From a phage, in sequence record PZ179882.1: 64,000 nucleotides of DNA; one strand, 5' to 3'. The notes under the pieces were generated by a model that saw only the letters and a list, made by a program, of their open reading frames with translations, did not search any database and was not told where the DNA came from. Of the stretch, positions 50,025 through 50,779 are shown piece by piece (positions within the stretch are counted from its first letter, which is position 1; every line of letters starts with the position of its first letter). Both the position numbers and the translations under genes were made by a program.

Positions 50025-50573
50025 ACCCAAGAAAACATCTACAGAACGTTGATACCACTGCAAATCCAAATAGCCATTACGCACATTAAACTGATAGAAC
50101 ATGTGACAAGGCGGTAATGCCATTTGCTTGAGTTCAGCTGGATTCCACGCCGACACAATTTGACGCCTATCGTTTGGAAATGTTTTAATACGATTAACAA
50201 CTTCTACAATTTGGTCTACACCGCCAAAATCACGCCATTGTTTTCCGTAAATTGGACCAAGTTCACCACTATGATAACCTAGGTCTTTGGCCTGATTTTC
50301 GTAGTTTTCATCCCAAATCGTTTTTCCAGCAATTAAAGATCCATGAGTACGTTTACGTAGATCATTTACGTTAGTACTTCCTGATAAGAACCACAATAAC
50401 TCAGAAATACACGCATTCCAGGCGAGCTTCTTAGTTGTTACTGCAGGAAAACCTTTAGTTAAATCCCAGCGTAATTTAGTACCGAACAAAGCAATTGTTC
50501 CTGTGCCTGTTCGGTCATCGGTTTCGTAGCCATTTTCTAGAATATCTTTAATTAAAAATTGGTATTGTTGCAT
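50025..50573 (-). CDS. td: Thymidylate synthase, exon 1
   Basis: ORF track 50022..50585; start at [11 protein letters not shown]; ends ...YQRSVDVFLG at the 5' splice site; the two exons give 286 aa. Confidence 0.85.
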
Positions 50574-50779
50574 TAGTTCATCCAAGAATATGTAGAAGGA
50601 TATTTGGCAAAGTTAGGCTTATATCCTAATTTAGTCATTTGTTTTGCTTTGCTAGTAAATCCTAAAGAACGCTCACCTTTAAGATATTGTTTTGGTGTCA
50701 TAGGCCCTTGATGCATCTGCCGACAAATAAAAAGGGCCATAGCATTAGGAACATCCTTAACTTTTAATTTATTGCTCAT
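50573..50779 (-). CDS. Hypothetical 68-aa basic protein between frd and td
   Basis: ORF whose ATG overlaps the frd stop (ATGA) and whose stop overlaps the td ATG by 1 nt. Confidence 0.5.

Follow-up and report, generated by a model that had tools for sequence, protein, structure and literature searches.

In phage T4 (NC_000866) the genes for dihydrofolate reductase, frd (145109..145690), and thymidylate synthase, td (ending at 145112), overlap by the four nucleotides ATGA, with nothing between them. The same junction has an alternative occupant in T2, T6 (L019, 3973..4320), RB10, AR1 and RB32 (RB32ORF229c): a 115-aa gene of unknown function, bounded by short direct repeats and assigned to PHROG 1928 (E 1e-35), with no match in Pfam or among PDB sequences. 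One record names this gene "putative homing endonuclease", a label to which Pfam and the PDB give no support. A third group of phages, e.g. EC121 (ASZ77065.1), Yersinia phage fPS-90 (g234c) and MN04 (MN04_00225), encodes here hypothetical proteins of PHROG 9550, a family of unknown function. The gene studied in this work is of the last type. It already has a PHROG number and is known as a hypothetical protein in more than 100 phage genomes in GenBank; the observation is in this respect an ordinary one, with nothing to surprise a T4 specialist. We consider it very probable that it is a protein-coding accessory gene of the phage-only PHROG 9550, that it forms the td-proximal member of a cassette, and that it is exchanged by recombination.

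The window is a stretch of 64,000 nucleotides of phage DNA (PZ179882.1), in which frd, a 68-codon ORF and td lie, with all genes of this region, on the minus strand. The frd gene (193 aa, 94% identity to T4 Frd) is located at 50776..51357, the ORF including its TAA stop at 50573..50779, and td exon 1 (90% identical to its T4 counterpart; 3' boundary approximate) at 50022..50573. The true td start is the ATG at 50573 and not the TTG at 50585 given by the ORF tool, because alignment to T4 td places it there. Alignment of the two junctions shows a single clean gap of 206 nt in T4, and the frd 3' end, the td 5' end and the initiation region upstream of ATGA are common to T4 and the window. The ATG of this ATGA is the start of td in T4, whereas in the window it starts the 68-aa ORF and td begins 206 nt further on. 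The initial annotation had described this layout correctly, i.e. an ATGA overlap and no ORF in T4, and in the window an ORF overlapping both of its neighbours. The stop of frd (TGA) and the start of the ORF (ATG) form the ATGA at 50776..50779, as seen both in the sequence and in the T4 alignment, and the stop of the ORF (TAA) and the start of td share one nucleotide in the TAATG at 50571..50575. The ORF product ends in YSWMN, and no paralogue of it was found when the rest of the window was searched. Downstream, the td intron holds the gene for the homing endonuclease I-TevI (245 aa, MKSGIYQIKN..., 49156..49893, minus strand), identified from the ORF list and the T4 annotation. A search of 48500..51500 with Rfam gave sub-threshold hits only (E up to 1), with no match above noise; the group I intron of td was not reported either, though its presence is evident from the I-TevI ORF and the interruption of td.

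Upstream of the ATGA the alignment reads ...ACGGAATCAGTATACAAATGA in the window versus ...ACGGAATCAGTATATAAATGA in T4, and just 5' of it both phages are identical (…ACGGAATCAGTATA[C/T]AAATGA). The ORF therefore appears to start from the initiation region used for td in T4. Its translation would begin in this region, which lies in the 3' end of frd, and re-initiation at the TAATG would then allow translation of td, possibly aided by a GGA that is found some 8 nt before the td ATG, within the conserved Trp-Met codons (TGGATG). Translational coupling of frd, ORF and td is thus suggested by the overlaps. The ORF lies within the frd-td transcription unit, and a consensus scan of the stretch from frd to td found no site resembling a promoter or terminator; it would be expressed within the frd-td operon with neither a promoter nor a terminator of its own. 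The 115-aa gene of T2 and T6 is organized differently: it has its own initiation region and is separated from td by a 45-nt spacer, whereas the 68-aa ORF overlaps td.

To assign the product to a family we compared it with protein profiles. It matches phrog_9550 over its entire length (E 4.3e-44, 149.7 bits, residues 1–68 on positions 1–68 of 68), and this is the only PHROG found, with no match to PHROG 1928. All the family motifs are present in the window protein: the Lys-rich N-terminus with K4, K6 and P11, then R20, K34, F41, M48 and L51-G52-Y53-x-P55. Across 32 members each of these positions is either invariant or conserved to 90% or more, and K4, K6, R20 and K34, invariant or nearly so, are among the best conserved. 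The protein is small and strongly basic (12 K+R for 2 D+E, pI 10.1), as is the rest of the family, with a net charge of +7 to +17 and a pI of 9.7–10.6 in all 32 members. With an alignment of these 32 sequences AlphaFold gives a model with a pLDDT of 85, with helices at 13–24, 29–38 and 43–49 and an ordered C-terminal segment; it supersedes a poor first prediction of the structure made on a shallow alignment (pLDDT 62). The prediction is thus of a 7.8-kDa protein made of three helices, strongly basic and with a conserved N-terminus rich in Lys.

The statement that the product carries no recognisable motif holds in every library searched. Pfam returns no family for the ORF at E up to 10 and none for the 32 family members, NCBIfam no match, the PDB sequences no match with either the single protein or the family profile as query, and PADLOC zero families at E up to 1. 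Foldseek returns nothing from the PDB and only a family member from the viral models. We found nothing specific in the literature on this PHROG number or on the frd/td junction in T4-like phages.

Relatives fall into close and distant ones. The homologues of EC121, fPS-90 and MN04 match the window ORF in length, in position between frd and td and in overlaps, with 94–98% protein identity, i.e. one to four residue differences. A 77-aa protein of Phapecoctavirus (ukendt_93, QHR64889.1) and metagenomic proteins (P0021–P0042) are about 30–47% identical end to end. They share the N-terminus M-K/S-G/N-N-K-x-K-V, the LGY-x-P and the strong positive charge, and some carry a basic tail at the C-terminus or 6–10 additional residues between helix 1 and helix 2. 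In a set of 5.8 billion proteins about 40 clusters of relatives were found, all from phages or metagenomes, 66–108 aa long except for a few truncated calls, and none with a Pfam domain. An exhaustive HMMER search over 1.84 billion representatives (clusters at 50% identity) gave only 11 clusters, one of them spurious and the sole long match, a repetitive protein of 1402 aa (P0026). PHROG 9550 occurs in two or more groups of large lytic phages of enterobacteria that are unrelated to each other.

What the protein does can be proposed only tentatively. It may bind nucleic acid, or an acidic partner protein, in early or middle infection, a role that we regard as possible rather than probable; the high positive charge is compatible with acidic-protein binding too. 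The ORF is dispensable, because T4, T2 and T6, which are viable, lack it. The product could alternatively be a host-takeover or anti-defence factor that blocks a host protein and not nucleic acid, which we consider rather unlikely. In favour of such a factor the gene has features common to genes of this kind: it is small, phage-only, dispensable, variable in presence between close relatives and laterally mobile, and in other phages it sits in arrays of small early genes. On the other side there is no structural relative by Foldseek, no mention was found in the literature, and PADLOC gives no match, the latter being a weak test because its library is made of defence and not counter-defence proteins.

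A second alternative is a dedicated partner of thymidylate synthase or of the dNTP-synthesis machinery, which would account for the constant coupling to td. The ORF does overlap td in every T4-like locus examined that has it: the window, EC121, JS98, SH7, Potts1, EI and three divergent T4-like metagenomic contigs (L004–L006). The arrangement of the window is also that of the other Tequatrovirus records with the ORF, such as EC121, and of JS98 (Dhakavirus). In Marfavirus (Potts1, EI) and L004–L006 frd is followed by one or two genes of about 110–125 aa and then by the ORF and td, with an ORF/td overlap of 1–4 nt; the intervening genes of Potts1, EI, L004, L005 and L006 all belong to PHROG 1928 (one or two copies). 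Such adjacency within one virus family is equally explained by an inherited position. Moreover, in Phapecoctavirus and four other large-phage contigs the homologue lies among small early-type or replication genes, with no td within 4–5 kb, and T4, T2 and T6 make a functional Td without the ORF. A Td partner thus appears improbable.

Annotations of these loci are uneven. In the JS98 RefSeq record (L007, 1501..1707) the 68-aa ORF is wholly unannotated, and in Potts1 (L003, 4001..4207), EI (L009, 1501..1708) and IME339 only a 42-aa 3' fragment is annotated. T4-based annotation pipelines sometimes miss or truncate the ORF.

To compare the junctions of sequenced phages we used the T4 junction as a query, which matched about 515 records and gave three spans: 301 nt for the empty junction (T4), 507 nt for the junction with the 68-aa ORF (the window, EC121) and about 717 nt for that with the 115-aa ORF (T2, T6, RB10, AR1). 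The 115-aa gene is present at 90% identity or more in 363 records and the 68-aa ORF in about 128–138, out of about 500–570 records. The shares among Tequatroviruses are estimates and not direct counts, as the 80-nt junction query joins its halves across inserts: about 65% for the T2/T6 type, about 20–25% for the window type and, by subtraction and from an evenly spaced listing, of the order of 5–10% for the T4 type, a small minority. The comparison with T4, T2 and T6 proposed in the initial annotation gives two different answers, an empty junction in T4 and the PHROG 1928 gene in T2 and T6. That annotation had also considered an accessory gene, and this is the right category.

The two occupants are unrelated in sequence (hhalign probability 0.21%), and in the divergent T4-like phages genes of both types stand side by side between frd and td. 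Both are flanked by direct repeats. Those of the ORF are AATG in the window and AATGA in SH7; those of the 115-aa allele are 9 nt long (TAAATGAAA, positions 1345–1353 and 1761–1769 in phage AndreasVesalius, L017). Excising the DNA between either pair of repeats gives exactly the T4 sequence TAAATGAAACAATACC. Because of this, and because both genes co-occur in the divergent phages, the simplest history would be differential loss from an old array composed of frd, one or two phrog_1928 genes, phrog_9550 and td, the ORF being the td-proximal member. Tequatrovirus lineages would have kept different parts of it, i.e. phrog_1928 in T2 and T6, phrog_9550 in phages of the window type and none in T4, which would be the fully deleted form. 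The empty junction is a rare state and probably a derived one, since the ORF lies upstream of td in Dhakavirus, Marfavirus and three contigs and most Tequatroviruses are occupied. We infer this polarity of loss versus gain from the distribution and not from a rooted reconstruction, and short repeats fit insertion equally well.

Protein divergence also bears on this history. In the distant phages identity to the window copies is 38–50% for Frd, 59–79% for the ORF and 80–85% for Td. The ORF is thus intermediate between its two neighbours, as joint inheritance of the three genes would predict.

Inheritance is nevertheless not strictly vertical. Between the window and JS98 the DNA identity is 92–95% over the ORF block (about 50505..50803), against 58–88% in frd and 66–86% in td. 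The contrast between the block and its flanks indicates a recent exchange of the segment between genera, and the near-identical JS98 copy shows that the distribution of the ORF is partly non-vertical. Homologous recombination within the conserved 3' end of frd and 5' end of td is presumably what shuffles the alleles among phages.

The surrounding DNA has mosaic patches of its own. A stretch of frd (51001..51100) is 57–58% identical to SH7 and JS98 but 86–99% to T4 and EC121. A stretch of td exon 1 (50305..50404) is about 71% identical to T4, EC121, SH7 and JS98, and the 100-nt blocks around it are 83–97% identical to the three Tequatroviruses (T4, EC121 and SH7). Between the frd.1 and frd.2 homologues there is a 100-aa ORF on the minus strand (51667..51969), where T4 has a gap of 138 nt. 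Judged by the layout of the ORFs alone, nrdB and nrdA lie next to each other without an intervening mobE (44645..48139), and gene 32 is directly followed by gene 59 with no segG (52735..54396). The phage thus seems to be without two of the free-standing endonuclease genes of T4, yet keeps I-TevI in td.

The initial annotation had read the ORF as an insertion wedged into a T4-type junction and had suggested the remnant of a mobile element. Several observations would favour the recent arrival of a mobile cassette, or of a free-standing homing endonuclease gene that has since decayed. Many free-standing seg and mob genes lie between conserved genes of T-even phages (T4 annotation), the indel is clean, with short direct repeats at its borders, the ORF block is far more alike between genera than its flanks, and in one record the other gene found at this site is called a putative homing endonuclease. 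That label lacks the support of Pfam or the PDB, as noted above. The 206-nt segment itself encodes no mobility functions. No GIY-YIG, HNH or NUMOD domain is found in the ORF by Pfam at E up to 10, and hhalign gives probabilities of 0.13% for I-TevI and 0.21% for SegG. If the ORF were a remnant, a longer intact parent would be expected; real relatives are all 66–108 aa, aligned over their whole length, and no such parent appears. These same-length, end-to-end homologues in unrelated phages argue for a whole protein. We likewise rejected a connection of the ORF with the td intron or I-TevI: the presence of the intron and of I-TevI does not track the junction allele, and all combinations occur. 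The absence of domains and the full-length homologues thus largely refute the endonuclease remnant. Against an insertion stand the purifying selection on the ORF (see below) and its adjacency to td in deeply diverged T4-like lineages, where it diverges in step with its neighbours. As the ORF abuts td in Dhakavirus, Marfavirus and the three metagenomic contigs and most Tequatroviruses have an occupied junction, the insertion reading is probably backwards. Taken together, a recent insertion or a remnant seems very doubtful.

Several results show that the ORF is a real gene. The T4 reference lacks it, and among the 238 phage records that carry the protein (tblastn) it is full length and in one piece in 236. 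One exception stops at a record boundary. The other is Shigella phage SH7 (L008, about 1452..1658), with a one-base change in a homopolymer run (A8) that may be a sequencing error. In Klebsiella phage EI (L009, about 1501..1708) the ORF is matched in two pieces, with a similar one-base frameshift in a G run. The frameshifts of SH7 and EI could be sequencing errors or rare pseudogenes. Between divergent copies dN/dS is 0.10–0.19 by the Nei-Gojobori method, with synonymous sites saturated, and 24 columns are invariant across 16 sequences of the ORF family at 59–96% identity. Judged by codon substitutions, the ORF is under purifying selection. It is not a product of chance, because it exactly fills the gap in T4, is full length in 236 of 238 records and has this low dN/dS. 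A chance open frame or a non-coding spacer such as an RNA element, to which the shortness of the ORF, its missing annotation in JS98 and the partial 42-aa calls in IME339, EI and Potts1 could have pointed, can be dismissed on the dN/dS, the retained frame, the protein homologues at 30–45% identity in unrelated phages, the confident AlphaFold model and the lack of an Rfam match above noise. The 68-codon ORF is thus the gene of a real, conserved, small basic phage protein.

For the biology of these phages the first consequence is that T4 is not representative at this junction: the textbook overlap of frd and td represents a minority allele in the Tequatroviruses sequenced. A broader reading, which we hold improbable, would make PHROG 9550 a new fold class of small basic effectors that bind host or phage nucleic acid or a target of host defence or takeover, the alternation of alleles then reflecting host-driven selection and not neutral loss. 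As a confidently folding, strongly basic and phage-only family without known relatives, PHROG 9550 is a reasonable if unexceptional choice when small phage proteins are screened for function. The frd/td junction itself constitutes a natural cassette with three alleles, exchanged via conserved flanks, and could serve as a marker of recombination among T-even phages.
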